This document shows positions 1-45,088 of a DNA stretch of 45,088 nucleotides, one piece after another. The DNA comes from a virus, in the IMG/VR virus record IMGVR_UViG_3300038701_001628, positions 1-45,088 of that record; one strand, written 5' to 3'. Below the pieces are notes generated by a model. The model was not told where the DNA came from. It saw only the letters and a list, made by a program, of their open reading frames with translations, and made no database searches. The stretch's first letter is position 1; every line of letters starts with the position of its first letter. The position numbers and the translations under genes were made by a program.

Positions 1-235
1 CGTGTTGCTCGCCGCTGACCGGTACCCCGTGTTGCTCGCCGCTGACTGGTCACCCGTGTTGCTCGCCGCTGACTGGTCACCCGTGTTGCTCGCCGCTGAC
101 CGGTACCCCGTGTTGCTCGCCGCTGACCGGTCACCCGTGTTGCTCGCCGCTGACTGGTACCCCGTGTTGCTCGCCGCTGACCGGTACCCCGTGTTGCTCG
201 CCGCTGACTGGTCACCCGTGTTGCTCGCCGCTGAC
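1..235. repeat. 27-nt tandem repeat array, left portion (8 full units plus a terminal core)
   Basis: Unit is cgtgttgctcgccgctgac + 8 variable nt (cggtaccc/tggtcacc/cggtcacc/tggtaccc). The 19-nt core is identical in every unit. Confidence 0.95.
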
Positions 236-588
236 TGGTTCTCGGACTCAACAGACGCACCTTCTTTCGTGATTCTTGAATGGGTGTACTCAATCTGCGC
301 TTTAATTAGGTCGAACAGGGACAGTTCCGCTTTGATGCTGATTTTGGAAGATGACACTTTGTTTGATTCACTATCATCTAGGGTACCTGACTGCTCTACT
401 ACACAGAACCTTGATTCTGATGGTGAATAGTAACTGAATACATCGAACGGTGTAGGACATGCGTGAAACCCAGAACCACAGGCTTCAACTTTTCCTTTGT
501 GTTCATAAGTCTCACCGATCTCGTATTGGAAGTCTCGACAAGTGAGGTCTTTATTAAACCCTTTATAGGTGATGATTGATTTGGTCAT
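1..588 (-). CDS. N-terminal part of tandem-nonapeptide-repeat protein (gene leaves the left window edge and resumes at the right edge)
   Basis: ATG at 588..586 with AGGAG 8 nt upstream. My minus-strand translation is MTKSIITYKGFNKDLTCRDFQYEIGETYEHKGKVEACGSGFHACPTPFDVFSYYSP...AQIEYTHSRITKEGASVESENQ (116 unique aa), then SAASNTG[DY][QR] repeats. Open to nt 1, with a codon boundary exactly at nt 1. Not in the ORF track because it is partial. Confidence 0.75.
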   Translation of the reverse strand, partial: MTKSIITYKGFNKDLTCRDFQYEIGETYEHKGKVEACGSGFHACPTPFDVFSYYSPSESRFCVVEQSGTLDDSESNKVSSSKISIKAELSLFDLIKAQIEYTHSRITKEGASVESENQSAASNTGDQSAASNTGYRSAASNTGYQSAASNTGDRSAASNTGYRSAASNTGDQSAASNTGDQSAASNTGYRSAASNT

Positions 589-623
589 GACTGTAAGCTC
601 CTGAGCTTCATTGGTTTAGCGGG

Positions 624-652
624 ATCATATCAGAGTGTTGGACGATGTGCAA
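624..652 (-). promoter_or_regulatory. sigma70-like promoter for the repeat-protein / leftward operon
   Basis: Minus strand reads TTGCAC (652..647), 17 nt, TATGAT (629..624), about 30 nt upstream of the AGGAG-ATG at 588. Confidence 0.4.
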
Positions 653-14469: not shown

Positions 14470-16062
14470 ATGCCCAAGATACCAACATACGACGGATTAC
14501 AAGTTGATCAGCAAATAGCATCACAACCGTTGGCTCGTGTCGACCCTGATCCAATAAACAGTCGGGCGATCAATCAGCTTGGTAACGAAGTTCTCAAGAT
14601 GCAACAGCGCATTGCTGAGACTGAAGCTGAAGAAGCAATTACCTCGTTTGAGCGAGAGAAGAATAAAATCTTCTTCGATCCAGACAGTGGTTATTTTAAC
14701 GCTCAAGGTCGCGATGCTTACGACCGTGCCCCCGAGGTCAACAAGAACCTTGACGCACTGAAACGCCAGTACTCTGAAAACCTCAAATCAGACACAGCTC
14801 GTCGAGCGTTCGACAGGGTTGCCACTCAACACCTCACCCGTGCAAATCAAGATGTAATGCGTCACGCTAGTAAGAACCTTAAGGCTTGGGAAGCGAGCAC
14901 AATCAATGCTCAAGTTGAGAACACCATTGAGAATGCATCACTGTATTGGAATGATGAAAAGCGACTCGGCGTACAGCGTGAGCTTGGCAGACAGTCTGTT
15001 ATGGAGAGTGCCAATATTGAAGGGTTAAGTCCTGAAGCAACTGCCGAACGCCTACAAACCTATGAGTCTTCATTTGCTGCTGCTGCTGTCACTGCTGCTG
15101 TACAGCAGGGTTCACAGCAAGGTCAGGAGACTTTCGATCGTTACAAGGATCGTCTCGAAGGTCCAGATGTGATCAAGATGCAGTCAGCGATCGAGCGTAA
15201 AGCTAAAGCTGAGAAGACCCAACTTGACTCGAATACTGCAGTTCTCGCAGCCGGTAAGCTGGTGGAACAATATGGTGATGCTGACAATGCGCGGTCATCC
15301 ATCATTGAAGAAGTGAACAAGATCGAAGATCCTGAACTGCGACAAAAAGCAATGAAGGAATCCATGTACCAATTTGAAGCCAAAATGAAGGCTGACTCTG
15401 AAGAACGTGCTGCAACGTTTGAGGCCGGGGAGAACTTCATCGTAGAGGGTGGTTCAGTAGAGCAATTCATTGCTCAGAACCCAGAACAATGGGAGAAGTT
15501 GACTCCGAAACAGAAGCGAGTATTGAACTCAGGTGCTTCTGTAAGTACTGATTATATAAAATTATCAGACTTATTAACCCTGCCGAAAGACAAGTTGGCA
15601 CAGGTTAATCCCACGGATCACTTCGATCACTTGAACAAAGCTGATCGAAGTAAGCTGATCAATGCAGTTAAGTCTGCTCGCCAAGGTGGTGTCGATCACC
15701 AAGTTGGTAGAACTCGAACTGCCGAGACATCTTCAGCGGTTGAACAGTTATTTGGTAAAAAGACCAAATGGGACAAGAAGGAGAAGGCGCAAGTCAATGA
15801 GTTCTATGCTATAGTAGACGATGAGGTACAGTTCCGCGAGAAGCAGAAGGGGTCACCCTTGACTTCCCAGGAATATACTGAAATGTTAAACAGCATGACT
15901 CGCAAGGTTGTCAAAGACCGGACATTCTGGTTTGACAAAGAGCAAGACATCACTGATATCCCCGCCGAAGATCTGGGTGTGATCAGTGATTACCTGCATC
16001 AAAATAGCATACCTGCGACTGCTGAGAATATCCTAAAAGCATACGAACAGGCTTCTCAATGA
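14470..16062 (+). CDS. internal virion/core protein (gp15-position)
   Basis: 530-aa helical protein with a 4-nt overlap with the giant downstream gene. Confidence 0.5.
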   Translation: MPKIPTYDGLQVDQQIASQPLARVDPDPINSRAINQLGNEVLKMQQRIAETEAEEAITSFEREKNKIFFDPDSGYFNAQGRDAYDRAPEVNKNLDALKRQYSENLKSDTARRAFDRVATQHLTRANQDVMRHASKNLKAWEASTINAQVENTIENASLYWNDEKRLGVQRELGRQSVMESANIEGLSPEATAERLQTYESSFAAAAVTAAVQQGSQQGQETFDRYKDRLEGPDVIKMQSAIERKAKAEKTQLDSNTAVLAAGKLVEQYGDADNARSSIIEEVNKIEDPELRQKAMKESMYQFEAKMKADSEERAATFEAGENFIVEGGSVEQFIAQNPEQWEKLTPKQKRVLNSGASVSTDYIKLSDLLTLPKDKLAQVNPTDHFDHLNKADRSKLINAVKSARQGGVDHQVGRTRTAETSSAVEQLFGKKTKWDKKEKAQVNEFYAIVDDEVQFREKQKGSPLTSQEYTEMLNSMTRKVVKDRTFWFDKEQDITDIPAEDLGVISDYLHQNSIPATAENILKAYEQASQ

Positions 16063-19000
16063 CCACACTGAATTTAGATAATATTGATCTTGGTGCATTC
16101 GGACCAACTGATGAGAATGAAAAAACTGTAGACCAAGTTGTTGATCAACAACGACAGCAACAACTTGGTGCCACATTGGGTGAAGCTATCAAGGTTAACC
16201 CAGATCAACAAGCCAAGATCAACAAGTTATCTAAAGAATCAGGTGTACCACCTGCTGCTGTAGAGTCTGACCCCACGTCCATTGAGACAAATCTTAAGTT
16301 AAAGAAGATCGACCTCAAGTCAATGACTCGCACCAACCCTGCTGTCAGTAAATTCTTGAACGACTTTGATCGTGCATCTGTGTCTCATGATGATATTGAT
16401 TCATTGAAGGCTTTAGAAGACGCGGTTGCCACTCTGCATCTACCCTCAAAACAGCAAGTTGCTGATAATTCTGAAGACAAGAATGGTTATCTGTCCAATG
16501 TAGGCCGAGGTGTCGGCGAGCGTGTGACCGAGCTGCTTGGGTCATTATATGGGTTTGCTGCCCAGGGTGGTGAGTACCTTGACGAAAAGTTCCCCGTAGG
16601 TGGGTTTGTATTTGAAGACTCACTACTTCCGAGATATGCCGGACCTGAAGAATGGAAGCAGTTGCAAGAAAAAGGAATGGACGACCTTGTTGCTCGGACT
16701 GGTAAGATCCTCAAAGACACCAACTTTGGTTATATACCTCAAGCCACATGGGAGACTACCAAGGAAGCCTACGCATCTGGCGACGTACTTGATGCTGCAG
16801 GTGAGACTTTAGCATTCGGGTTCGAACAAGGCACTCACTCACTTGCTGATATGGCTGCTACCATTTATGCACTTCCAACTTACATTTTGGCCAGGTCACA
16901 AGAGATAGGCGAAAATCGTGCCAAGAATAAAGGTTTAGAAAAAGCAACAATCGAAGAGACGATCGAAGCCGCACCGTTCGCTGTGGGTTCCGCGATATTG
17001 GAACGCATATTGCCTGCTAAAGTTTTTGGTGGTATGAGTAAGAAAGAAGTCAGTCAGGTTGGTAAGGAAGTCCTTAGCCAGTCTGCTAATAAATTGAAAG
17101 AGGTCATGAAGGCCGCTGGTAGTGGTCTGATCATTGAATCCACCACCGAGGCGATCCAAGAGGGTCTGATTGAGTACATCGGTGAGCGTTATGGTACTGA
17201 TGCGCCAATCTTTCTAAGAGAAGCGTTGGATCGTGCTGCAGGGGGTGCTGTCGGTGGCGGTGTAGCTGGTGGTATGTTGAGTGGTACTTCAGCAACAATC
17301 AATGTTGTAGTTAACACACAGACCTCTCAGAAGATGGATGCTGCTGCGCAGGAAGCCCAGCGTCAGGCGATTCAGGCTGACCAAGAGCAACGCACCATCG
17401 ATAACCTTAACGACCTGGCACAAGGCTCAAAGCTGCGTGAGCGTGACCCCGAGTCATTCAAGCAGTTTGTAGAACAGAGCGACGGTGAGAATAACACTCA
17501 CGTATTTATCGACGGTGTGCAAGCTAAACTTTATCTAGCCGACAAAGATGTACAGTCGGACCCAGTGCTACAGATGATCGCTGAGAAAGTAAACGAAGCC
17601 GCCAGTCTGGGCAACGAGGTCGCCATACCTGTTGCAGATTTTGCGACAACTGTAGCAGGTACTCCGCACTTTGAAGCACTTCGTGAGTTCATGACATTAA
17701 GCGGTAAAACCACTGCTCCATTTAGACAAGAACAAGCACAACAAGAAACCCGCGAGTACGTTTCGAAACTGATGGATGACGCCAAAGAGAATGTGTCTCA
17801 GTACGTTGAGTCACAGGAGATCTTTGAATCTGTTCGTCAACAGCTCGTTGATACCGGGATGGTCAATGCTCAAAATGCAGGAGTGATGGCTCAAGTCGTA
17901 CCCGCATGGGCAACAGTGTACGCACAGAAGAATGGTATCTCTGTGCAAGAAGCGTACCAGAAATCAGGTTTAGTTATTGAAGGACCACAAACTGGTCGAG
18001 CTGCAGCACTGCAGGCTGAAGAAGTTACACCCCCAGTAATTCCAGAAGAACAGATTCAAGAGCGTATCGTCACACGTGAGCCTGTCACAGATCGTCGGCA
18101 ATCAGACACAAGTAACGACGTTTCGGAACAGCGCCAGGGTGATCGTCGTTCGGATGACGCGCGTCGTGAGCGCATTGCGAACATGACTCCTGAAGAACAA
18201 TACAAGGCGATCTACACCAATGAATTGACTGGTTTAAACAATCGCCGCGCATTCGAGGAAGATTTACCAAACTCACCCGTTGTAGTTAGCATCGACGTTG
18301 ACTCACTCAAAACAGTGAACGACAACTTAGGTCATGATTCAGGCGATCAGTTACTCAAGGTCGCTGGTAAAGCGATCTACGAAGCCACAGGCGGTAAGGC
18401 TTATCACATCAGTGGCGATGAATTCTATGTACTTGGTGACAATCAAGCTGAGATAGAAAGCAACTTAGAAGCTGCTCGACAAGCATTAAGCAACTCTGTT
18501 GTTGCTTCTGAACGCGGTGCACTAACTGGTGTTGATTTCACTTACGGTGCTGCAGATAACAAAGCCGATGCAGACCATGCGATGGAGCAGGCTAAGGGTG
18601 ATCGTGAGGCGCGTGGTGAGCGAGTACCACGTGGTGAGTTGCCGCGAGGTATGGTGTTGAATGAGAAATTGAATCAAGTTGCTAACGAGAGTGTTGAAGA
18701 ATTCAGTAACAGAATTGCAAAAGAACAAGGTCTTGAGGATTTTTTCTTAATAGAGAAACGCAACGGTGACATTGAGCTTGCTAATTTTGTAGTACCAAAA
18801 ACCGATCAAAAGTCAGGTAAAGGTACTGCTACAATGCAGGCTCTGATTCAATTCGCCGACCTTAACAATAAGCGAATTGTTCTTGATCCTGCATTGAAAG
18901 ATGACAGAAAAGGAACAACAAGTAGAGGTCGTTTAGTTAAATTCTATAAACGATTTGGATTTGTCGAGAATAAGGGTCGCAATAAAGACTTTGAAATCAG

Positions 19001-22000
19001 TGGGTCAATGTATCGTGAAGCGTCAGAGACTTTTGCTCAATCGGTTGATCAGACTCAGACTGAAGCATTTAGGAAGTGGTCTGAAGGTGGTGAAGTTGTT
19101 GAAGATTATGATGTTAACGATTATGAGTTCAAACAAGACACACCGGTTGTGTTGAAAGTCTACCACGGGACTACTCACAAGTTCAGCGTATTTGAAGCAC
19201 TTCGTGGAAATCTTGAAGGCCAGTTTGGAGCTGTAAATTACTTCACAAGTAGCGAGTATGATGCTGAACAAAACCACGCTGGTGAAGGTCCAGATCTAAC
19301 TAATCGGATTGACCGTCGTGCAGAACAGTTGACAGATGATATTCAAGAGATTATTGATGAATCAGGATTAGACGCGGCAATTGAACAATTTATACCAGGT
19401 GTAGATCAATTCATAGAAGATGCTTCTGACATTGCGCAAGTTCTTGCAAAGAAAGAATTGTCAGGTGGTGAAGAACTCACGATGGAGTTGTTCGTCAAAG
19501 TTAAAAACCCGTTTGTAATCGGTGAGAATGCTGAGTGGTTAGAATTTGTCGACAATGACTCAATTCGATCACAAGCTGAAGAGAAAGTTGCTGAAGATAA
19601 TGATGTGGACGTTGATGAGGTTGTCAATAACTTTGAAGAATATGAAGACCAAATCTATGATGCGATTTATGAAATTGAAGCCGAAACCCCAAATCAACTG
19701 ATTGAAGCAATTCAGGAAATATCTGATCGTCACGGAATTGATCCTAGTAATCTGCTCGCTCAAGTTTATGAATTAGGTTCAGAAGCAAAACCTGAAGTCA
19801 TTGAAGACCTGCTACGAACAAGTGAAGATTACCAATATGTAGAAGGTGATCAAGGTGAGTTAATTGGTTCACAGTTGATAGCTGAAGTAATTGAAGAGAT
19901 GGGGTTTGATTCAATCATTCTTCGAAATGCTGAAGACCGATTCAGTGCAATGGACATCCCTCAATCAACTGCACATGTTCATATTTTTGACAGCGGTAAA
20001 ACTAATATCAAAGCTGTTAATAATCAGGGTACTTTTGATCCTGAGAATCCAGACATCTATAAACAAAAAGAACGCGGATACTACGAACCAAGCCGCTCGT
20101 TAATCCGTCTTACTGAGTCTGCGGATCTTAGTACATTCCTTCATGAGTTTGCTCACTTCATGTATGAAATGGAGTTGAACTCTACTGACTCCCTTGATGG
20201 TAAGAACACTGTTGCAAGTATTCACAAGTGGTTTAAGCGTAACTCTAAAGATGTTGCGAAAGAAGCTAATTCTTACTTGGGTAGATCGGGTGCATTAGAG
20301 CAACCTGCTTTCCACGGCACTGCGCATCAGTTTGACAAGTTCAGTCTCGAAGCTATCAACACTGGTGAAGGTAACCAAACTTACGGGTGGGGGTTGTACT
20401 TCGCAAGTAAAAAATCAATTGCTGATTTTTACAAAGACAAGTTCCAAGGTCGCACTGTAGAAGTTGAAGTTCCTGAAAATAGTGAACTCTTAGACTATAA
20501 CGCACCGTTGTCATCTCAACCTGGGATGATGGAAAAACTCAACATCAAAGAAAAGTCTGTTTACCTTGACACCGAGCTGACTCCATCAATGTCAGGTCAG
20601 GAAGTTTATGACCGTCTTGCACGCGGTAGAACGAATCGCGGTGTTAACACCAAACAAGAAGCTTCGGAATATTTGTCATCACTCGGTATACCCGGTCTAA
20701 AATATCGTGACGCAAGTTCTGAAGGTGACAACTTTGTCATCTGGGATGAAGATCGTGTAAGTATCACTGACATTAATGAACAAGAACATCAAGCAGAAAG
20801 ACTCAATCAAGAAGGCGATCCAGACTTCCGTGAACCTCCGAAAGAAATAACTGAAGAAGATATTCTCGTATACCTCGATGTTGGTACCACAAACTTCGCT
20901 GACAAAGATGCTGCTATTCGTCGTGCTACTCATGAGCAGTTTGCTCGCGGATTTGAAACGTACTTAATGGAAGGTAAAGCACCTTCTGCTGAACTGCGTA
21001 ATATTTTCCGCACGTTCGCACGATGGTTAACTCAGATCTACAAATCAGTACGCGGTAATTTACGGGTGAACCTCGACGAAGAAATGCGTGAAGTTTTCAA
21101 TCGTCTACTTGCAACTGAAGAACAGATTGCAGCCGCTGAAGCTCGTGCCAAGTATGCACCAATGTTTAGTAATGCTGCGATGGCGGGAATGACTGAGGAA
21201 GAGTTCAGCAAATACACCGAGCAGCAAGAAAAAACCAAAGACAAAGAAACCGAAACACTACGTGACAAGTTGATTGGTGAAATCACTCGTCAAACTAAAT
21301 CATGGTGGAAGGAAGAGAAACAAGATCTTATTGATGAACAGCTTGACGTTCTCAGTGTTGAGCCTGTTTACCGTGCGACTGAGGGTCTGCGCAACGGTGA
21401 GTTCAAACTTGATCACGCCACTGTGAAAGAGATGGTCGGATTCGAGCGAACTGATAAGCGCGGTATGACTTCAACTCGTGTTCCAGATCAACTACGCGGT
21501 ATGACTGTCAAAGGTGCTAAGGGTGTTCACCCTGATGAAGCCGCTGCATTCTTTGGTTTCAATTCAGGTAGCGAGATGTTGTCTGAAATTATTGATGCTG
21601 TACCCGTCGGTGACAAAGCTGCTGCACAAGCTGAAGAGATTATGCTTGAGCGTCATGGTGACATCATGCACGATGGTACTATTGAGCAGCAAGCCGACGA
21701 AGCATTGCAGAATGAAGAACGCGGTAAGTTGATCCTTCAGGAACTTAAATCACTTCGCAAGGGTACCAATGCGCCAGCGTTAGATCGTGCCACCATCAAA
21801 GCAATGACTGAAGAGAACATTGCTAAACTGAATTACCGTTCCATATTCCCTCAGAAGTACCGTAAAGCTGAGATTCGTGCAGCCCAAGAAGCCGCTGCTG
21901 CATTAGCGAAAGGTGACAAAGAAGCTGCAGCAATGGCGAAGGCTCGTCAAGTTCTAAACTACTATTTGGGAATGGCTGCTACTGATGCACGCAATGACAC

Positions 22001-24443
22001 CTTGAAGATTGTTGATCGTATGTCTCGATACAACAAGAAGAAGGTGCGCGAAGAAATTCAAAAAGCTGAGAATGGTTACTGGGAGCAACTTGTAAAAATT
22101 CTCAACCGGTTCGAATTCCGCAAGTCTGCCACACTGAAACAAGTCGACGAGGTTAACGAAGATATCAACTCGTGGATGAAGGCTCGCATGGATGATGATG
22201 GTGACGCATTGGTGCTATCTCCTGCAGTTCTCAATGAGACATTTGTCACCCATTGGAAAAATGTTCCATACTCTGATCTTCAGGGTATCAATGACTCTGT
22301 GAAGAACATCGAACACGTTGCGCGGTACTCTAACAAACTAACCCGCATGGGTGAAGAGATTGAATTTCGCAAGTTGGTTGACCGGTGGGTTAACCACATG
22401 GAAGAAGCTCAGCCTTCACGTTTCCAGCCACAACGCACCAGTGTAGTCGAGGGTCGCAACTGGGGTCGTTGGGCAATGGCTCAGATGACCAAGATTCCAT
22501 ACATGGCATCGTGGCTTGACGGGGGTGAGCGTGTCGGATTGAGTCATGACATCCTCATCCAACCTATGACCGACGCTGCTGACGCTGAGATCCAGCTATG
22601 GAAGTCAGTAGGCAGTAAGGTCATGGAAGCCATAGAAGGGCGTGACAAGGCTGACATTAAGCGTCACAACCGTAAGATCTTCATCCCTGAGCTAAAGGAC
22701 GCCACTAATGACGGTAACCTCATGGGTCACCAGGTTCTTGCTGTTGCATTGAACACTGGTAACCAGGGCAACTTGCGCAAGATGTTGCTCGGTGAAGGTT
22801 GGGCTAACCCCGAGAACGATGCCGAGATCACTCTGCAAAATCCCAAACTGCAAGCTGTGCTGAAGAACATGACCAAATCTGACTGGGAACTGGTGCAGTT
22901 AATCTGGGATCAGATGGAAGAGTTATACCCGCAGTTAGCAGAAGTACATCGTCGCACTACTGGTTTAGTGCCACCGAAGGTTGACGCAACCCCCGTGCAG
23001 ACTGAGTTCGGCACATTCAAGGGTGGTTACTACCCGGTGAAATATGACTCTAACCGCAGCCATCAGGCTGAGATGAATGAGGATAAGTTGAATGCGCAGA
23101 CTGAGTCGATGTTCAGTACGATCGGGAGTATCCAGGCGTCGGTTAATGCATCAGCTACGAACGAAAGAACCAAGTACTATGCACCGATCAGACTCAGTCT
23201 GGACGTGGTGCCAGGACACTTCCAAGAAACCATTCATTACATCACACACCATGACGCAGTGCGAGAAGTCAACAAGCTGATTCGTAACAAGTCTGTGGCT
23301 GAGACAATTAAAGCAAAACTCGGACCAGAAGAGTACGCTCAACTTAAACCTTGGTTGAACGATCTAGCCAAAGATGGTAAAGAAGCACCTACCAAGATGT
23401 TCTGGGATGACATGCTGGGTCGTCTACGTTTTGGTCTGACACTTGGTACTATGGGTTTCCGTGTCACCACGGGTCTTATCCAGATATCTGGTCTATCGAA
23501 CACTGTGGCTGAAGTCGGCGCTAAGCCTGTGTTACAGGCTGCTCGCAGCATCCTCGGTAGTACAACCAACATGAGGGAAGCTTGGGACTTTGCTAACTCT
23601 AATTCCAAGGTGTTGAACCACAGAACGCAGACTATGGACCGTGAGATCAAGAACGCCATGAATCGCATTGCTGGGAAGCGTGGTATGTTGGCAGCAGTCC
23701 AAGAGGCGTCAATGAAGCACATTGCATATATCCAGACCTACATGGTGGATCTGCCAAGCTGGTACGCTGCGTACATCAAGAAGCTTGATGAAACGGGAGA
23801 TGAGCAAAAAGCGTACCAATATGCTGATTGGGTCGTGGAAAATGTTCAGGGTTCAGGGATGACGAAAGACATGGCACGGATAATGCGTGGTCAGTCAGAA
23901 AGTGGTAGAATGTTCACTATGTTCATGACTTTCTTCAGTTCGTTGTGGAATATGGAACGAGATCTTGTGAAAGGTGCCAGATCCAAGCGTTATTCTATTA
24001 CAACCACTGCAGCTAAGTTGGCATTCTTATTCAGTATCCCAGTTCTATTTGAGATGTTGATGAGAGGTGAGGTTGACGACGATGAGCCAGAAGAGACAAT
24101 GCAGAAGATACTGACCAAGACAGCGACATTCCCTGTACAGTCGGTACCATTCATAAGAGACATTGTCAATGGTGCTACGGGAGAATTCGGTTATAATATA
24201 TCACCGATCGCATCATTGCTTGAAACCGGTACCAGGTCAATACCTGCTCTAGTTGCCGCCCCGTTGACTGACGATGAGATAACTAAGTCTCAAGTCAAAG
24301 GTGCGACCAAGGTTGGTGGGGCTGCACTCGGCATCCCTGGTATCAATCAAGCCTGGGCCACTGGTGAGCATTTGTACGAAGTAATTGAAGATGGTGAAGA
24401 TTTCACTACACAAGAATTCTTGTTTGGTCCAAAGAGAGATTAA
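16059..24443 (+). CDS. giant internal virion / ejection protein (gp16-position), polyvalent multi-enzyme protein
   Basis: Uninterrupted 2794-aa ORF between a gp15-like gene and the tailspike. The C-terminal region has hydrophobic segments (LAFLFSIPVLFEMLM). The central region holds GGDEF, GNAT, ART-like and HExxH motifs (listed separately). Confidence 0.85.
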   Translation: MTTLNLDNIDLGAFGPTDENEKTVDQVVDQQRQQQLGATLGEAIKVNPDQQAKINKLSKESGVPPAAVESDPTSIETNLKLKKIDLKSMTRTNPAVSKFLNDFDRASVSHDDIDSLKALEDAVATLHLPSKQQVADNSEDKNGYLSNVGRGVGERVTELLGSLYGFAAQGGEYLDEKFPVGGFVFEDSLLPRYAGPEEWKQLQEKGMDDLVARTGKILKDTNFGYIPQATWETTKEAYASGDVLDAAGETLAFGFEQGTHSLADMAATIYALPTYILARSQEIGENRAKNKGLEKATIEETIEAAPFAVGSAILERILPAKVFGGMSKKEVSQVGKEVLSQSANKLKEVMKAAGSGLIIESTTEAIQEGLIEYIGERYGTDAPIFLREALDRAAGGAVGGGVAGGMLSGTSATINVVVNTQTSQKMDAAAQEAQRQAIQADQEQRTIDNLNDLAQGSKLRERDPESFKQFVEQSDGENNTHVFIDGVQAKLYLADKDVQSDPVLQMIAEKVNEAASLGNEVAIPVADFATTVAGTPHFEALREFMTLSGKTTAPFRQEQAQQETREYVSKLMDDAKENVSQYVESQEIFESVRQQLVDTGMVNAQNAGVMAQVVPAWATVYAQKNGISVQEAYQKSGLVIEGPQTGRAAALQAEEVTPPVIPEEQIQERIVTREPVTDRRQSDTSNDVSEQRQGDRRSDDARRERIANMTPEEQYKAIYTNELTGLNNRRAFEEDLPNSPVVVSIDVDSLKTVNDNLGHDSGDQLLKVAGKAIYEATGGKAYHISGDEFYVLGDNQAEIESNLEAARQALSNSVVASERGALTGVDFTYGAADNKADADHAMEQAKGDREARGERVPRGELPRGMVLNEKLNQVANESVEEFSNRIAKEQGLEDFFLIEKRNGDIELANFVVPKTDQKSGKGTATMQALIQFADLNNKRIVLDPALKDDRKGTTSRGRLVKFYKRFGFVENKGRNKDFEISGSMYREASETFAQSVDQTQTEAFRKWSEGGEVVEDYDVNDYEFKQDTPVVLKVYHGTTHKFSVFEALRGNLEGQFGAVNYFTSSEYDAEQNHAGEGPDLTNRIDRRAEQLTDDIQEIIDESGLDAAIEQFIPGVDQFIEDASDIAQVLAKKELSGGEELTMELFVKVKNPFVIGENAEWLEFVDNDSIRSQAEEKVAEDNDVDVDEVVNNFEEYEDQIYDAIYEIEAETPNQLIEAIQEISDRHGIDPSNLLAQVYELGSEAKPEVIEDLLRTSEDYQYVEGDQGELIGSQLIAEVIEEMGFDSIILRNAEDRFSAMDIPQSTAHVHIFDSGKTNIKAVNNQGTFDPENPDIYKQKERGYYEPSRSLIRLTESADLSTFLHEFAHFMYEMELNSTDSLDGKNTVASIHKWFKRNSKDVAKEANSYLGRSGALEQPAFHGTAHQFDKFSLEAINTGEGNQTYGWGLYFASKKSIADFYKDKFQGRTVEVEVPENSELLDYNAPLSSQPGMMEKLNIKEKSVYLDTELTPSMSGQEVYDRLARGRTNRGVNTKQEASEYLSSLGIPGLKYRDASSEGDNFVIWDEDRVSITDINEQEHQAERLNQEGDPDFREPPKEITEEDILVYLDVGTTNFADKDAAIRRATHEQFARGFETYLMEGKAPSAELRNIFRTFARWLTQIYKSVRGNLRVNLDEEMREVFNRLLATEEQIAAAEARAKYAPMFSNAAMAGMTEEEFSKYTEQQEKTKDKETETLRDKLIGEITRQTKSWWKEEKQDLIDEQLDVLSVEPVYRATEGLRNGEFKLDHATVKEMVGFERTDKRGMTSTRVPDQLRGMTVKGAKGVHPDEAAAFFGFNSGSEMLSEIIDAVPVGDKAAAQAEEIMLERHGDIMHDGTIEQQADEALQNEERGKLILQELKSLRKGTNAPALDRATIKAMTEENIAKLNYRSIFPQKYRKAEIRAAQEAAAALAKGDKEAAAMAKARQVLNYYLGMAATDARNDTLKIVDRMSRYNKKKVREEIQKAENGYWEQLVKILNRFEFRKSATLKQVDEVNEDINSWMKARMDDDGDALVLSPAVLNETFVTHWKNVPYSDLQGINDSVKNIEHVARYSNKLTRMGEEIEFRKLVDRWVNHMEEAQPSRFQPQRTSVVEGRNWGRWAMAQMTKIPYMASWLDGGERVGLSHDILIQPMTDAADAEIQLWKSVGSKVMEAIEGRDKADIKRHNRKIFIPELKDATNDGNLMGHQVLAVALNTGNQGNLRKMLLGEGWANPENDAEITLQNPKLQAVLKNMTKSDWELVQLIWDQMEELYPQLAEVHRRTTGLVPPKVDATPVQTEFGTFKGGYYPVKYDSNRSHQAEMNEDKLNAQTESMFSTIGSIQASVNASATNERTKYYAPIRLSLDVVPGHFQETIHYITHHDAVREVNKLIRNKSVAETIKAKLGPEEYAQLKPWLNDLAKDGKEAPTKMFWDDMLGRLRFGLTLGTMGFRVTTGLIQISGLSNTVAEVGAKPVLQAARSILGSTTNMREAWDFANSNSKVLNHRTQTMDREIKNAMNRIAGKRGMLAAVQEASMKHIAYIQTYMVDLPSWYAAYIKKLDETGDEQKAYQYADWVVENVQGSGMTKDMARIMRGQSESGRMFTMFMTFFSSLWNMERDLVKGARSKRYSITTTAAKLAFLFSIPVLFEMLMRGEVDDDEPEETMQKILTKTATFPVQSVPFIRDIVNGATGEFGYNISPIASLLETGTRSIPALVAAPLTDDEITKSQVKGATKVGGAALGIPGINQAWATGEHLYEVIEDGEDFTTQEFLFGPKRD
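18201..18608 (+). other. GGDEF (diguanylate-cyclase fold) domain, aa 715-850 of the giant protein
   Basis: ELTGLNNRRAFEEDL...VVVSIDVDSLKTVNDNLGHDSGDQLLK...YHISGDEFYVLG...ADHAMEQAKGDRE. Signature SGDEF at 18411-18425. Confidence 0.75.
18741..18977 (+). other. GNAT N-acetyltransferase-like domain, aa about 895-973
   Basis: Motif A Q-x-x-G-x-G in DQKSGKGTATMQALIQFA, followed by RLVKFYKRFGFVENKG. Confidence 0.55.
19146..20026 (+). other. ART-PolyVal-like module 1
   Basis: VYHGTTHKFSVFE...GAVNYFTSSEYDA...VKVKNPFVIGE...MGFDSIILRN...AHVHIFDSGKTNIKAV fits the remembered HGT / YFT / NP / G.D.I / vF...IK pattern of polyvalent-protein ADP-ribosyltransferase domains. Confidence 0.45.
20142..20156 (+). 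other. HExxH zincin metallopeptidase motif (HEFAH)
   Basis: STFLHEFAHFMYEMEL, aa 1362-1366. Confidence 0.5.
20310..20783 (+). other. ART-PolyVal-like module 2
   Basis: FHGTAHQFDKFS...YGWGLYFASKKSIADFY...LGIPGLKYRD...GDNFVIWDEDRVSITDI. Paralogous to module 1. Confidence 0.45.
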
Positions 24444-24462: not shown

Positions 24463-26781
24463 ATGACAGTTAATACAACAAACATCACTTCCGGGCCTTA
24501 TTCCGGTAATGGTATAACTACTGGGTTCTCTTACACTTTTCGTGCAGAGTTGAAGACTCAACTTCTTGTTTATGTCAAAGATGCTAGTAATGTAATAACC
24601 ACAAAAACAGTGGACACTGATTATACAGTTTCAGGTTTGGGGGATGACGATGGTGGTGTGGTTACATTCTTAACCGCACCCGTCACTGGAGAGACGGTTT
24701 ATATTCGTTCCAATTACCAGGCCACACAAGACACAGATTTTGATAGTCAAGGTGGTTTTTTTCCAGATGTACACGAAGCAGCAATTGATAAGTTAACATT
24801 TCAGATACAACAATTACAAGACCAAGTGAACAGATCGTTAAGAATAAATATCAACGATGACACAGGTAGTCTGGATCCATTAGCAGAGATAACTGCTAAT
24901 TCATTTTTAAGAGCCAATGCAACAGCAGATGGTTATGATCATTTCACATTACCCTCAGTCGGTGTTACTGCCGAAGTACCTCTCGCCTCATATGATGATT
25001 TTAGAAATGGTACTGCTAGTTTTGATATCGATGATTATTCTGATGGTCAGATAATTTGGTTTACAAATAATTTAATTTTCGGAGCCTTTGTTTTAAGAAC
25101 AGGGGCGTCTCCGGCTGACAATGGTGGAACAGTAATCCGATCTACAGTAGACACCAATAGATACGTGGAACGAGTATTTAGTGGTGCGGCATCGGTAAAA
25201 TGGTTTGGTGCTACAGGGGATGGTGTTACTGATGACAGTGCTGCTTGTCAGGCAGCTTTGGATAATCATCAAGCTGTGTTGTTTGATGAGCCAGATACTG
25301 CATACTTGATTGAGAATGAACTCATCCCCCCTACCAATCGATTGATCATTGGTCGTCGTGGGAAAATAGAAGCAGGCGCTGGGTTACAAATAGCTGCAGC
25401 TCAAGCTTTTGTGTTCAGACTTAATAATAACGGAATCACATTTAAAGACATGATCATTAATGTCGATTATTCTGTGTTTCCCAGAAACGCCAGTGACGAA
25501 GCAAAGGTTGGAGCCATATACGGCACAGGGCGAAATAATATAACATTGGAGAATTGTACAATCACCGGTGGTGCCAACTTCTTCCAAGCGTCCGGCTTCA
25601 TTGCTACTGGCTTAATTGAGATTAGAAACTCGGCGTTCATTAGACTTGAGAACTGTTTTGTCCGTGGAGATTATAGCGCAGCTTGGAGCGGATCAGCAGC
25701 AGGTTCAGAAATCTGCAAAATATTAACATGCACAGATGTTTCAATTATCGGTGGTGTTTATCGTCAGAGCTTTTATTCATGTATTGCAGTTGGTGTAGGG
25801 GGTGAGCGTGTAATTATTGATGGGGTTCAAGCTGATACATGTATTGGTTCTGTTATTAGTTTTAACGCTCAGGATGCTACGCTTGCGAACTCTGTTATAG
25901 GTGGGTCACGTGATGAAGGTGGTGTTGCGATGGGTCACCCATCTTCAGCAAGTGCGAGATGTAAGGTTCTTGGTAATACCATTTACGACTGCGGTCGAAG
26001 CGGTGTATCAGTAGCCTATCCTGACGCAATCATTGCTAACAATAACATAAGAGACTGTGAAACAGCTTCTCCTTCTGATACATTTGCTGCGGCCATCGCT
26101 ATCGGTGATTCCGCTAATCCTACCACATATAGAAATCGAGCAAGTGTCAGTGGTAATGTAATCCGTGGTTGTTATAACGGTATTGTAGTCAGTGATTCTT
26201 CTTTAGCTGGTGAAGATGGTTCTGATTATGCAATCAATGGTAATGTTGTAAGTAATTGTACGAATGCGGGTATTTATTCATCCGCGCCAAATGTTTCTAT
26301 AGTTGGTAATGTGACTCGATCGAATGATAGAAATATCCAAATTGAAACTACTAGATCAACTAACAACATAGTAACAGCGAACACTGTGGTTTCCGGTGTG
26401 ACTTATGGAATATTGGCTAGTTCACCAGGGTCTGGTACGAGAATATGGGGCAACACTGACGTTAATAATACGGCGAACAGTATTGCACATGAAGAATTAA
26501 CAATTGCCACAGGGGAGATTACAATAACTTCTGATCATCACTTCACTGTAGATACAGAGTCAGATGCTGCAACTGACGATCTGGTTACGATTAACGGCGG
26601 AATAGATGGGCAAGTTGTTACACTATCACCCGATAACGATACAAGAACAGTGGTTGTCAAAGATGGTTCTAACCTTCAACTGAACGGTGATTTTACAATG
26701 GATTCTAATGTGGACATGATTACTCTTAAGAAGATTGGCAGTAATTGGCGAGAAGTTTCCCGATCTGATGTATCTTCATAG
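24463..26781 (+). CDS. tailspike / tail fibre with pectate-lyase-type right-handed beta-helix (probable polysaccharide depolymerase)
   Basis: N-terminal fibre anchor YSGNGITTGFSYTF..DYTV. VKWFGATGDGVTDDSAACQAALD (Pectate_lyase_3 signature). Repeated NxxIxxC/G beta-helix rungs (NCTITGG, NNNIRDC, SGNVIRGC, NGNVVSNC). Confidence 0.8.
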   Translation: MTVNTTNITSGPYSGNGITTGFSYTFRAELKTQLLVYVKDASNVITTKTVDTDYTVSGLGDDDGGVVTFLTAPVTGETVYIRSNYQATQDTDFDSQGGFFPDVHEAAIDKLTFQIQQLQDQVNRSLRININDDTGSLDPLAEITANSFLRANATADGYDHFTLPSVGVTAEVPLASYDDFRNGTASFDIDDYSDGQIIWFTNNLIFGAFVLRTGASPADNGGTVIRSTVDTNRYVERVFSGAASVKWFGATGDGVTDDSAACQAALDNHQAVLFDEPDTAYLIENELIPPTNRLIIGRRGKIEAGAGLQIAAAQAFVFRLNNNGITFKDMIINVDYSVFPRNASDEAKVGAIYGTGRNNITLENCTITGGANFFQASGFIATGLIEIRNSAFIRLENCFVRGDYSAAWSGSAAGSEICKILTCTDVSIIGGVYRQSFYSCIAVGVGGERVIIDGVQADTCIGSVISFNAQDATLANSVIGGSRDEGGVAMGHPSSASARCKVLGNTIYDCGRSGVSVAYPDAIIANNNIRDCETASPSDTFAAAIAIGDSANPTTYRNRASVSGNVIRGCYNGIVVSDSSLAGEDGSDYAINGNVVSNCTNAGIYSSAPNVSIVGNVTRSNDRNIQIETTRSTNNIVTANTVVSGVTYGILASSPGSGTRIWGNTDVNNTANSIAHEELTIATGEITITSDHHFTVDTESDAATDDLVTINGGIDGQVVTLSPDNDTRTVVVKDGSNLQLNGDFTMDSNVDMITLKKIGSNWREVSRSDVSS

Positions 26782-38850: not shown

Positions 38851-41460
38851 ATGCCAAGTAATTTAGAATTTCTAACTGCACTATTCGGAGACAACGCACC
38901 CTGGGTTCATGTTACTGATTTTCCTTACGATCCTGCCAACATTCCAAGCGAACGACACTTAGCGGCATGGAAGGGTGACTACTTTAGTCGCTATCAGTTC
39001 CAGAATGGAACCAATCAATACTTCACAATAAGCAACTTTTATGCCGATGAAAAAGGTGTTGCTCGTAGACGTAAAGCGTTATTCCGACACACACCGGTGA
39101 TAGTCCTTGATGACGTGAAAGAAAAGTTATCAATGGATGAAGTGCAGAAATTACCCAAACCATCATGGATTCTCGAAACCTCGCCGGGTTCTGAGCAGTG
39201 GGGGTACATCTTATCTGAACCATGCACGAGTCGTGCCAGGGTGGAGAACTTACTTGACGGACTGGTCGCTAATGGTCTAGCTCCCGCTGGTAAAGATCCA
39301 GGTATGAAAGGCGTCACTCGTTACGTGCGCTTGCCTGAAGGTTACAATACTAAGTCAGCCAAGATGATTAATGGTCAACCATTTAAGTGTCAAATAACTG
39401 AATGGAACCCCTTTCACACGGTCACTCTTGAACAACTTGCAGCGCCCTTTCACGTAGACCTCGACGCTATTAGGCGTGATCAACGTGTCGATGGTGCTGC
39501 TCAGGTTGATGATCACCCATTACTGCAAATCCCAGACCTGATACGAATCAAGGAAGTGCGTAGTGAAGGTCGATTCGATTGTACATGTCCCTGGGTGGAC
39601 GAGCACACAGGTTGTGAGGATTCAGGTTCGGCGATTTTCACCAATGGTGATGGGTCGATAGGATTCAAATGTCATCATGGTGCTTGTCAAGACAGGACTG
39701 GGCGACATTTGCTTAACTTCATTGAAGAACAAGCACCGGGGTTTAGTCAAAAATTCAACAACTGGCAGATGGTCAATGCTTTTGCTGATGTTTCTAGCGT
39801 CTCATTTATGGGAGATTCTGAGAAACAAAGTGTAGAAAAGTGCACTTTAGGGTCCAAAAACGCGAATAATGAGCAGTTTAATGTACCTTATGAATCGGTA
39901 CCCCCGGTACCAGCACAACCCCAAGAACAAACCGAAGACATTATAAAGCAAGTATTGCGCCAACTCAGAGCTGAGATACCAGGGTCTCAACAGTCGATCG
40001 ATTTGGCATCCAAAATTCTGAAACAGATCGACTCGATGCCTGAGATACAGAAGATCACTTGGCACAATGATGTATGTGATGTTATGAAATGGTCTAAGCG
40101 CGACTTCGAGCGGATCATGAAGGATCTGCGCAGCACGTGGTATGAGGAATCACAGTCAAGCGTCAACTTCTTCGATGAAGTCATCTATGTAGCAGAGCAG
40201 AATCAATTCTTCGATCGCCGTAAGCGTATATGGTACACACCAGAGGCATACCAAAACACATACTCACATCTGGACCCTGAAGCCCGTAAGGAAGCGTTAC
40301 AGGGTGGTCGTGTCACCAAAGTGGACAAGGTGGACTACGCCCCTAAAAAACCTGCCGTGTTCGATGAGCGAGGTACCATTTACGGTAACGCTTGGCATGG
40401 CGACAGTGAGATGATGGGAGTGGAGGGTGATGTGTCCACATGGCTCGATCACTTCGACATTCTCGGGTGGGGTCAGTACCGTGACCACGTACTCAAGTGG
40501 ATGGCATGGACCATTGTCAACCCTGATATCAAGATCAACCATATGGTGTTACTTGGCAGCGGTGAGGGTTGCGGTAAAGACTGGCTGATGTATCCTTTAG
40601 TTAAGGCAATGGGTGATAACCATATGACAATCAGCGGGGAAGAACTGCTTGAAGGCTTTAACGACTACGTATTATCCACGAAACACCTACACATCAACGA
40701 AGCCGAGTTGGGCGACAGGAATGAAGCTGTTGCGGTATCGAGTAAACTTAAACCGTTGGCAGCAGCACCCCCAGAAAAATTACGAGTCAATCAAAAATCG
40801 GTCAAGAAGATCGAAGTACGGAACCTTCTAAGTGTCAGCATGACCACCAACTCCCAAACACCGGTGCGGTTAAGCGGTCACTCCCGTCGTATATTCGCAC
40901 TTTGGTCTGACTTAACCGTCAGAAATGACTGGGGTGAGATGAAGCAAGAGTGGAAAGACTTCTGGGGTGCTGCGTGGCCCTGGATGACCGATGGTGGATG
41001 GCAGCATTGTATCTGGTACTTACGCAATTGTGTTGACTTGTCGAACTTCAACCCTGGTGAGTCACCCCCTGTTACCGCATTCCTGCGTGACATTGTTGAC
41101 GCCAGCCGATCACCCCTACAGCAGACATTACAGCGGTTGATTATGACAGGTTTCGGTGTCTTCAAATCTGACTTGGTCACCAGTGAGGATATTGTCAACA
41201 CGATCAATGCTGGTATGAACTTCCATCCTGATATGATCTTTGTCAAGTCAGTACCTCAACCAAATCGCATCGGTCCCGCTTTGAAAGAGATGGGTGCACA
41301 TTATCGACTAGATGCCAAGACTGAGAATGACACTGCTTCATTGTGGGTGATACGCAACCATGATAAGTGGAGAAACTTCACTCCGTCCGAATTGATGCAC
41401 GAGTATCGTCGGATGGTTGGTGACTATAAATCAAATACACCTGTGAGTGTTGTGAAATGA
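38851..41460 (+). CDS. primase-helicase (prim-pol N-terminus, Zn-binding segment, P4/D5-type ATPase)
   Basis: VIVLDDV and ETSPGSEQWGYIL (primase core). CTCPWVDEHTGC...FKCHHGAC (zinc-binding). Walker A LLGSGEGCGKDW and Walker B LHINEAE. Confidence 0.8.
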   Translation: MPSNLEFLTALFGDNAPWVHVTDFPYDPANIPSERHLAAWKGDYFSRYQFQNGTNQYFTISNFYADEKGVARRRKALFRHTPVIVLDDVKEKLSMDEVQKLPKPSWILETSPGSEQWGYILSEPCTSRARVENLLDGLVANGLAPAGKDPGMKGVTRYVRLPEGYNTKSAKMINGQPFKCQITEWNPFHTVTLEQLAAPFHVDLDAIRRDQRVDGAAQVDDHPLLQIPDLIRIKEVRSEGRFDCTCPWVDEHTGCEDSGSAIFTNGDGSIGFKCHHGACQDRTGRHLLNFIEEQAPGFSQKFNNWQMVNAFADVSSVSFMGDSEKQSVEKCTLGSKNANNEQFNVPYESVPPVPAQPQEQTEDIIKQVLRQLRAEIPGSQQSIDLASKILKQIDSMPEIQKITWHNDVCDVMKWSKRDFERIMKDLRSTWYEESQSSVNFFDEVIYVAEQNQFFDRRKRIWYTPEAYQNTYSHLDPEARKEALQGGRVTKVDKVDYAPKKPAVFDERGTIYGNAWHGDSEMMGVEGDVSTWLDHFDILGWGQYRDHVLKWMAWTIVNPDIKINHMVLLGSGEGCGKDWLMYPLVKAMGDNHMTISGEELLEGFNDYVLSTKHLHINEAELGDRNEAVAVSSKLKPLAAAPPEKLRVNQKSVKKIEVRNLLSVSMTTNSQTPVRLSGHSRRIFALWSDLTVRNDWGEMKQEWKDFWGAAWPWMTDGGWQHCIWYLRNCVDLSNFNPGESPPVTAFLRDIVDASRSPLQQTLQRLIMTGFGVFKSDLVTSEDIVNTINAGMNFHPDMIFVKSVPQPNRIGPALKEMGAHYRLDAKTENDTASLWVIRNHDKWRNFTPSELMHEYRRMVGDYKSNTPVSVVK

Positions 41461-44472: not shown

Positions 44473-45088
44473 TTACTCGCATTCTACAAATTCACCATTG
44501 ACTAATTTGTACCATGTGTCAGCTTTCACATCTTGACCTGCTTTGGCTGTTTTGATATCAAGAATCTCATAGTCATCATTACGTTCAGTGATAACAATCC
44601 ATGATCCTTCTGACGCTTTAGCTTTAGAGTTATAACCAGTCACTATTGCTACAGATTCATTTCCTGAAACATCAGCCGCTGACTGGTACCCCGTGTTGCT
44701 CGCCGCTGAGTAGCGCCCCGTGTTGCTCGCCGCTGACTGGTACCCCGTGTTGCTCGCCGCTGACCGGTACCCCGTGTTGCTCGCCGCTGAGTAGCGCCCC
44801 GTGTTGCTCGCCGCTGAGTAGCTCCCCGTGTTGCTCGCCGCTGACTGGTCACCCGTGTTGCTCGCCGCTGACTGGTCACCCGTGTTGCTCGCCGCTGAGT
44901 AGCTCCCCGTGTTGCTCGCCGCTGACTGGTCACCCGTGTTGCTCGCCGCTGACTGGTCACCCGTGTTGCTCGCCGCTGACCGGTACCCCGTGTTGCTCGC
45001 CGCTGACTGGTCACCCGTGTTGCTCGCCGCTGACTGGTCACCCGTGTTGCTCGCCGCTGACCGGTACCCCGTGTTGCTCGCCGCTGAC
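44473..45088 (-). CDS. C-terminal part of tandem-nonapeptide-repeat protein (continuation of the gene at 1..588)
   Basis: In the SAASNTGxx frame the repeats run into ...GYQSAADVSGNESVAIVTGYNSKAKASEGSWIVITERNDDYEILDIKTAKAGQDVKADTWYKLVNGEFVECE, with stop TAA at 44475..44473. The frame is compatible with the left fragment if the 19 nt or 46 nt ends overlap. Confidence 0.7.
   Translation of the reverse strand, partial: SAASNTGYRSAASNTGDQSAASNTGDQSAASNTGYRSAASNTGDQSAASNTGDQSAASNTGSYSAASNTGDQSAASNTGDQSAASNTGSYSAASNTGRYSAASNTGYRSAASNTGYQSAASNTGRYSAASNTGYQSAADVSGNESVAIVTGYNSKAKASEGSWIVITERNDDYEILDIKTAKAGQDVKADTWYKLVNGEFVECE
44674..45088. repeat. 27-nt tandem repeat array, right portion (14 full units plus partial units at both ends)
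   Basis: Same invariant 19-nt core. Variable octamers are tggtaccc, cggtaccc and tggtcacc, with the last core base c->g in the tagcgccc and tagctccc units. Confidence 0.95.

Follow-up and report, generated by a model that had tools for sequence, protein, structure and literature searches.

Both ends of a 45,088-nt virus sequence from IMG/VR (record IMGVR_UViG_3300038701_001628, positions 1 to 45,088, hereafter the window) consist of an array of near-identical 27-nt tandem units, and the locus raises the question of whether this array is a protein-coding region, a functional DNA element or a product of the assembly. We conclude that it is likely the central region of one minus-strand gene whose product belongs to the DUF7666/PHROG 4433 family, would contain a repetitive β scaffold and might play a role in phage–host conflict. 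The identity, architecture and evolutionary mode of the array are well supported. As to its function, our guess is that of a scaffold whose exposed variable residues contact a target of the host or of a rival phage in such a conflict.

Tandem Repeats Finder reported period-27 arrays at 1-239 and 44675-45088. An 18-nt core (CGTGTTGCTCGCCGCTGA) occurs in 24 copies at exact 27-nt spacing and without any substitution, nine at the left end and 15 at the right end. Variation is limited to base 19 (C or G) and the following 8 nt, in agreement with the invariant core described in an initial annotation made from the sequence alone. Its count of at least 23 units was too high: window positions 44962-45088 are an exact copy of 1-127 and five of the 24 cores are duplicates because of this terminal repetition. 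The 127-nt identity looks like a terminal k-mer overlap of the kind that de Bruijn assemblers leave on circular contigs. When the ends are joined untrimmed, the two flanks are out of frame with each other. Trimming of 127 nt results in a 44,961-nt circle and a single uninterrupted minus-strand open reading frame (ORF) of 358 aa that extends from the ATG at 586-588 across the artificial window ends to the stop at 44473-44475. The non-redundant array in this ORF comprises 19 perfect SAASNTG-x1-x2 units followed by one degenerate unit, SAADVSGNE. The ATG, the AGGAG motif upstream of it and the flanking peptides quoted in the initial annotation are all present, but its claim of six open frames across the array has to be revised: three frames are open (minus 0, minus 1 and plus 2) and the other three hold 4, 8 and 20 stops.

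Given this junction, the printed array could largely be an assembly artefact, i.e. a tangle that was closed arbitrarily, with unreliable number and order of units and a possibly spurious circular closure. The contig break lies within the 531-nt array of a 45-kb circle, which has a chance of about 1.2% if the break is arbitrary and suggests that the assembly graph branched there. Similar breaks are found in 40-46% of related contigs: 32 of the 80 contigs identified by their N-terminal domain break off within the array, and of the 41 identified by their C-terminal domain about 19 start there, which bears out the earlier suspicion that the array troubles assemblers. Moreover, relatives have block duplications of more than 127 nt, which would collapse in a k=127 graph. 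Against an artefact, closing the circle after trimming keeps the reading frame and yields precisely the architecture of the family, and phage records deposited as complete genomes contain arrays of about 10-28 units. The longest exact repeat inside the closed array measures 103 nt and is thus shorter than 127 nt, which makes the path as printed internally consistent at k=127. We regard an artefact of this extent as very improbable. The objections touch the unit count, for which 19 should be taken as a lower bound because the break falls inside the array and because of the block duplications in relatives; the array itself is beyond doubt.

The 358-aa product can be assigned to a family through both of its flanks. 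Its N-terminal domain (aa 5-96) matched positions 1-94 of the 95 in the Pfam model PF24703 (DUF7666) with an E value of 6.9e-35 and 119.9 bits (cutoff 27), its C-terminus matched phrog_27197 (E 3e-68) and the full-length product matched PHROG 4433 (E 1.9e-136). These profile searches had been proposed in the initial annotation, which attributed the arrangement of flank, repeat and flank to a recurrent but uncharacterised phage and prophage family; the family is indeed catalogued, with no function assigned. The arrangement typical of DUF7666/PHROG 4433, a SAA[S/T]NTGxx array followed by a conserved C-terminal cap, is present in the window protein. Relatives such as ES18 gp53, NVP1185O_27 of Vibrio phage 1.185.O and QDB70960 of phage YA3 share the N-terminal domain, the array and a ...TWYxLxxGEFVE cap, and the identity between the window protein and its relatives amounts to 50-70%. 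The window protein differs from them in three respects: it has 19 units compared to 13-16 in most of the closest database relatives, its SY and RY unit types are rare elsewhere in the family, and its codon set is unusually GC-rich for its own genome.

The family is large and widespread. In a word-indexed protein search, 7,914 of 8,000 candidates scored as relatives, a lower bound for the number of full-length relatives, and an exhaustive HMMER scan found the N-terminal domain in 4,496 clusters at 50% identity. All 120 relatives listed carry PF24703, and those with a name are called hypothetical or "DUF7666 domain-containing". Matches were obtained by tblastn in 208 phage records, including the Pseudomonas phages BR228a, phi2, YA3 and Flu_PA14, the Salmonella phages SEN22 and ES18 (gp53), the Vibrio phages IKEMa6-1 and 1.185.O, the Acinetobacter phage fLi-Aba02 and the Blautia phage Montmirail. 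Overall, the family ranges over many phages and prophages of Pseudomonas, Vibrio, Haemophilus and Bacteroidota, and over phages of Proteobacteria and Firmicutes and giant viruses. No DNA-level match to ES18 gp53 was found in complete genomes of E. coli, and the window contains no second DUF7666 copy. The window protein is a new member of a catalogued, uncharacterised family, for which a single locus is ordinary. Among the viral models of BFVD, Foldseek detected a DUF7666-like fold in giant-virus proteins named as ankyrin-repeat or DUF4116-domain proteins, which hints that the N-terminal domain may pair with different repeat scaffolds. Weak BFVD matches (E ~0.015) to phage RIIB proteins were also observed.

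The codons of the repeat reveal how the array evolves. The heptapeptide is written TCA GCG GCG AGC AAC ACG GGK in the window, TCA GCR GCA ACC AAC ACT GGC in ES18 (nearly uniform throughout its array), TCT GCA GCA TCA AAC ACC GGT in Vibrio phage 1.185.O and TCG GCA GCC AGC AAC ACC GGC in YA3. In 20 of 45 related arrays, with lengths of up to 28 units, all units share one 21-nt core. Between the window and its closest relative, L004 (75% identity in the N-terminal domain), there is one synonymous difference, TCA in the window and TCC in L004, and this difference is fixed across the array: TCC occurs in all 10 units of L004 and in none of the 19 units of the window. These codon sets, specific to a lineage and uniform within an array, show that the DNA identity of the units arose by concerted evolution as initially proposed, through homogenisation by replication slippage or unequal recombination. 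Since different lineages encode the heptapeptide with different codons, it is maintained by selection at the protein level. Exact searches for the window core in IMG/VR and for a two-core pattern in JGI metagenomes and GTDB genomes did not return a second array of the same lineage.

The same data bear on the idea that the DNA repeat itself is functional, either as a set of iteron-like sites for a replication or packaging protein or as a recombination hotspot, and that the ORF is secondary. The 18-nt core is identical in all units, the array lies at a divergent operon junction beside replication genes, and the origin iterons of phage lambda sit within a gene, O. Furthermore, the array has a GC content of 0.68 and a GC content at third codon positions (GC3) of 0.84 in a genome with 44.7% GC and is built from the rare codons of that genome, GCG, ACG, AGC and GGG, whereas GC3 is 0.44 and 0.25 in the gene's own flanks and 0.29-0.44 in nine other ORFs. 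This GC3 is beyond what protein-level selection alone explains; GC-biased gene conversion, import from another genome or a constraint at the DNA or RNA level are possible reasons. However, four lineages use four codon sets for one peptide, and since what is conserved among relatives is the peptide rather than the DNA, a DNA-level role such as that of iterons is unlikely. The variable positions always form in-frame codons with a restricted amino-acid alphabet in which stops are avoided, the gene is found in varied genome contexts, the origin of ES18 is annotated separately, in gp59, and 19 or more sites at 27-bp spacing are unlike known iteron arrays. A primarily DNA-based function thus has little to recommend it, and we prefer the reading as a protein-coding array.

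Beyond the homogeneity of the units, their number and order change quickly. Protein lengths of relatives increase in steps of 9 aa (309, 318, 327 and 336, or 323, 332 and 341). Proteins whose 121-aa N-terminal and 71-aa C-terminal flanks are 100% identical carry 13-16 units in unrelated orders, and IMG/VR alleles with identical flanks have 4-21 units, although many of the assemblies of relatives are based on short reads and some low counts or part of the variation may represent mis-assembly or collapsed arrays. YA3 and Flu_PA14_4 are 98% identical over 4.1 kb, but have 27 and 26 units, respectively, in differing orders. The arrays of relatives contain block duplications and often just two to four unit types, as would result from slippage or unequal crossing-over. 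The variation in copy number between isolates that was anticipated in the initial annotation can thus be seen among relatives with identical flanks, and the alignments show a turnover of units that changes their number and the order of x1x2 far faster than the flanks change.

Which residues are affected by this turnover can be read from about 1,700 units that were parsed from 121 proteins of the family. SAA[S/T]NTG accounts for 1,664 of them (SAATNTG 921, SAASNTG 743), and the same nonapeptide occurs in relatives from Salmonella, Serratia, Pseudomonas, Haemophilus, Yersinia, Vibrio and Parabacteroides. More distant members have versions such as GAASATGxx, SVASNSGxx, STAATSGxx and SASQASGxx. 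In 99% of units x1 is D, N or Y and in 98% x2 is R, Q, Y, W or C, so the variable pair is not free and is drawn from a small polar and aromatic alphabet. Both residues are coupled: DY, DW, DC, NR and YQ are enriched about twofold, while YY occurs 0 times and YW 5 times. The window itself uses six unit types, in which G is followed by DQ, YR, YQ, DR, SY or RY. Along the arrays, autocorrelation shows the pairs to be weakly avoided at lag 1 and weakly enriched at lag 2 and therefore gives no clear answer as to whether there are 2 or 3 units per turn. A far-reaching interpretation of this pattern would be a rapidly reprogrammable recognition module, in which slippage and recombination reshuffle pairs composed of D/N/Y and R/Q/Y/W/C into new specificities and the N-terminal domain with its conserved Cys/His residues serves as the effector. 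Directed at a defence protein of the host, at a nucleic acid or at a competing phage, such a module would be a phage counterpart, by analogy, of the diversification known from TAL effectors (TALE) and VLR. We consider it unlikely.

How the units might fold was addressed with AlphaFold2. The predicted local distance difference test score (pLDDT) was 85-97 for the N-terminal domain in the full-length model (93.6 when modelled alone) and 86-96 for the C-terminal cap. In the confident part of the model, A-A-S-N forms a strand and T-G-x1-x2-S a turn. The alignment of the cap retains the 9-aa periodicity (SAAxVxGxx|SVAxAxGxx|SKAKAxxGx), and the residues of unit positions 2, 3 and 5 are replaced there by V, I or A. 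Because the cap continues the 9-aa rhythm of the array and because of this strand and turn pattern, the model favours an ordered repetitive β structure. The product has three parts, namely a compact Cys/His N-terminal domain, a run of SAASNTG-x1-x2 units and a small β-rich C-terminal cap. Each unit would contribute one short strand and one turn to an elongated β structure that is capped at its C-terminal end, and the two variable residues would be placed in exposed turns. In the N-terminal domain K9, C17, C37, G40, F41, H42, P47, Y54 and G68 are invariant and C44 is conserved to at least 90%, which makes a Cys3-His metal site plausible.

Besides the excess in GC3 and the short-read origin of many counts, several results weigh against the proposed scaffold and its role. 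In the centre of the array AlphaFold2 placed a strand every nine residues with a pLDDT of just 33-49, rising to 59-74 in the last three units, and the unit lacks large hydrophobic residues. Searches of PDB by sequence and by fold and of PADLOC revealed no homology to a protein of known function. Foldseek found nothing among solved structures that resembles the N-terminal domain model (best E 1.9), a PDB profile search with the N-terminal domain alignment gave no match and one with the C-terminal domain alignment yielded chance-level matches to polyubiquitin alone. In PADLOC-DB, no family was detected at E values up to 1. A literature search returned no paper on the DUF7666 family or the repeat motif.

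The low confidence of the central model would also suit a disordered, low-complexity polymer of the "sticker-and-spacer" type, in which Y or W and Arg, set exactly nine residues apart by S/A/N/T/G spacers, mediate multivalent binding or the formation of condensates in the infected cell. The array is polar, with many N, Q, S, G and Y and no large aliphatic residues, nearly all aromatic residues and Arg of the array reside in the variable pair, and two aromatic residues per unit are avoided. The sole match of the full-length protein in a PDB profile search was to the C-terminal nonapeptide repeats (TPAWNSGSK) of Spt5 (8qsz_Y, E 1.3e-8, with high compositional bias). Both share a 9-aa period and the pattern xxAxN[ST]Gxx, but the Spt5 repeats belong to a eukaryotic transcription elongation factor and the match is most likely a low-complexity coincidence. 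The C-terminal repeat region of Spt5 is disordered and phosphorylated. For a mere spacer, on the other hand, it would be unusual that the heptapeptide is nearly invariant across bacterial phyla and that the unit is exactly 9 residues long without insertions or deletions. In addition, the modelled strands keep the 9-residue periodicity all along the array, which passes gradually into degenerate 9-aa units for which the model confidently predicts β-strands packed on the C-terminal domain. Disorder is thus unlikely in our view, though it deserves more attention than the other alternatives, and we retain an ordered β scaffold as the preferred reading.

Comparison with other repeat proteins helps to delimit this scaffold. 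With TAL effectors, the array has in common near-identical units, variation in two adjacent residues, reshuffling by recombination and difficult assembly. TALE repeats, however, are helical hairpins of 33-35 aa with a demonstrated DNA code, whereas the units described here have 9 aa and are probably composed of strand and turn; there is no relationship in sequence or fold, and the likeness is an analogy only. The RTX β-roll (GGxGxDxUx) shares the nine-residue period and a predicted short strand with a turn of 5-6 residues. In contrast to RTX, the array has one Gly per unit, no GGxGxD motif and no secretion signal, and as no match to the Pfam family HemolysinCabind was found at E values up to 1, an RTX β-roll was rejected. 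Ice-nucleation proteins and other polar β-solenoids consist of uniform units rich in A, S, T, G, N and Y that undergo concerted evolution, and the array may resemble them in this regard. A possible Asn/Tyr ladder would be a further likeness, although homology was not detected. Ice-nucleation proteins differ from the array in their 16-residue unit and in being surface proteins that are anchored in the membrane.

Further candidates were rejected. The fLi-Aba02 homolog is annotated as an ADP-ribosyltransferase (Arr-like); the full-length model gave just a weak match to Arr (E 0.44, TM 0.39), which was not reproduced with the N-terminal domain model. Matches to NCBIfam YdhT and to a collagen-like adhesin were far under the cutoffs and compositional, and matches to PHROG "tail fiber" families (E ~1e-6) were likewise compositional and confined to the repeats. 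A diversity-generating retroelement was dismissed as well: Tandem Repeats Finder and the core search detected no second repeat copy outside the array, and a scan of ten window ORFs, among them most of the largest, was negative for a reverse transcriptase domain.

The genomic position of the gene offers some indication of when its product is needed. The genome is podovirus-like and encodes a T7-type portal (PF12236, E 1e-150). Structural genes make up the plus-strand block, and the minus-strand block encodes a DUF2800/PD-(D/E)XK nuclease, an Enc34-type single-stranded DNA-binding protein (SSB) and an SNF2 helicase. At the head of this minus-strand replication block lies the repeat gene, which adjoins a 400-nt divergent intergenic region (589-988). 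In ES18, gp53 directly follows the N-like antiterminator (gene 24) in the PL operon and precedes cIII and kil; in YA3 and Flu_PA14 the homolog lies downstream of cI in the leftward arm or operon, and in Vibrio phage 1.185.O it is found inside the replication module. An early or accessory position, the former suggested in the initial annotation, agrees with the ES18 PL operon, with YA3 and with the gene order in the window. The divergent intergenic region contains a promoter-like match: a TATGAT hexamer is preceded by TGCACA at a spacing of 16 nt and has an extended TG. Promoter-like matches of this kind are no commoner than in shuffled sequence (2 found, 2.6 expected). The repeat protein is devoid of a hydrophobic segment (maximum KD19 0.59). 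Together with the gene position, from which early expression is read, this fits an early, accessory and cytoplasmic protein. As a best guess, such a protein would bind a target of the host or of a rival phage and thereby act in anti-defence, exclusion or takeover. The variation in length and surface could either be selected or be a mere product of array instability.

The coordinates of the features are compiled in the table. The small ORF that follows the repeat gene encodes a very hydrophobic protein of 52 aa (MRVIITMLLWVFVLGPLCLYMIPYKLAATAAFGLLLIGITIYLVTLGDDLIL) without a match in PHROG. With a start codon that overlaps the final codons of the repeat gene, this predicted membrane protein is perhaps translationally coupled to it. 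Eight consecutive G occur at 852-859, within the AT-rich intergenic region that separates the divergent leftward and rightward operons. Elsewhere in the window, an 869-aa ORF with DUF5906 (primase/helicase type) is encoded on the plus strand at 38851-41460, inside the otherwise minus-strand replication block. The structural module includes a 2,794-aa ORF (16059-24443, plus strand), after which a 772-aa candidate tailspike with a right-handed β-helix (pectate-lyase-like) is encoded at 24463-26781.

Table. Features of the repeat gene and its surroundings in the 45,088-nt window.
Feature	Position	Strand	Basis
5' part of the coding sequence: start codon 586-588, N-terminal domain, linker helix and first repeat units	1..588	-	Translation of the trimmed join
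DUF7666 N-terminal domain, aa 5-96	301..576	-	Pfam PF24703
Repeat array, N-terminal side; first unit from 234, read leftwards	1..234	-	Tandem Repeats Finder, core search
Repeat array, C-terminal side, non-redundant	44683..44961	-	Tandem Repeats Finder, core search
127-nt duplicate of 1-127; assembly overlap at the circular closure, no extra units	44962..45088		Exact identity
C-terminal capping domain, aa 290-358 (SAADVSGNE...TWYKLVNGEFVECE), and stop 44473-44475	44473..44682	-	phrog_27197
AGGAG ribosome-binding site, 9 nt upstream of the ATG	598..602	-	Read from the sequence
Sigma-70-like promoter match TGCACA-16-TATGAT, extended -10 TG	624..651	-	Consensus match
52-aa hydrophobic ORF, two predicted membrane helices	44324..44482	-	Overlaps the end of the repeat gene

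The properties of the array also have consequences for assemblies and annotations. As a systematic breakpoint of short-read assemblies, it leaves fragments of the gene at contig ends, and several GenBank phage records begin or stop within the repeat gene. Untrimmed circular overlaps can in turn inflate repeat counts. In the record of Vibrio phage 1.185.O (MG592551, 4369-4586), pieces of the array are annotated as "CRISPR spacer 1-4" inside the homologous coding sequence. A CRISPR array can be rejected here: 18-19 invariant nt alternate with 8-9 variable nt of only six types, and the whole lies within an ORF that matches a protein family. With three frames open, long chimeric ORFs arise from indel errors or from real frameshifts. 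The database proteins P0125, P0128, P0129 and P0185 switch frame within the array (...QRATSQQVLQRATS... or ...VQLRLLA...). In databases, the array gives rise to false CRISPR calls and frame-shifted protein predictions.

For the family as a whole, the combination of a scaffold that is conserved throughout with a pair of residues that changes fast is notable, and no study of it was found in the literature searched. The conserved scaffold, the restricted variable pair, the homogenisation within each phage and the fast turnover of units make these proteins clear candidates for participants in an arms race.

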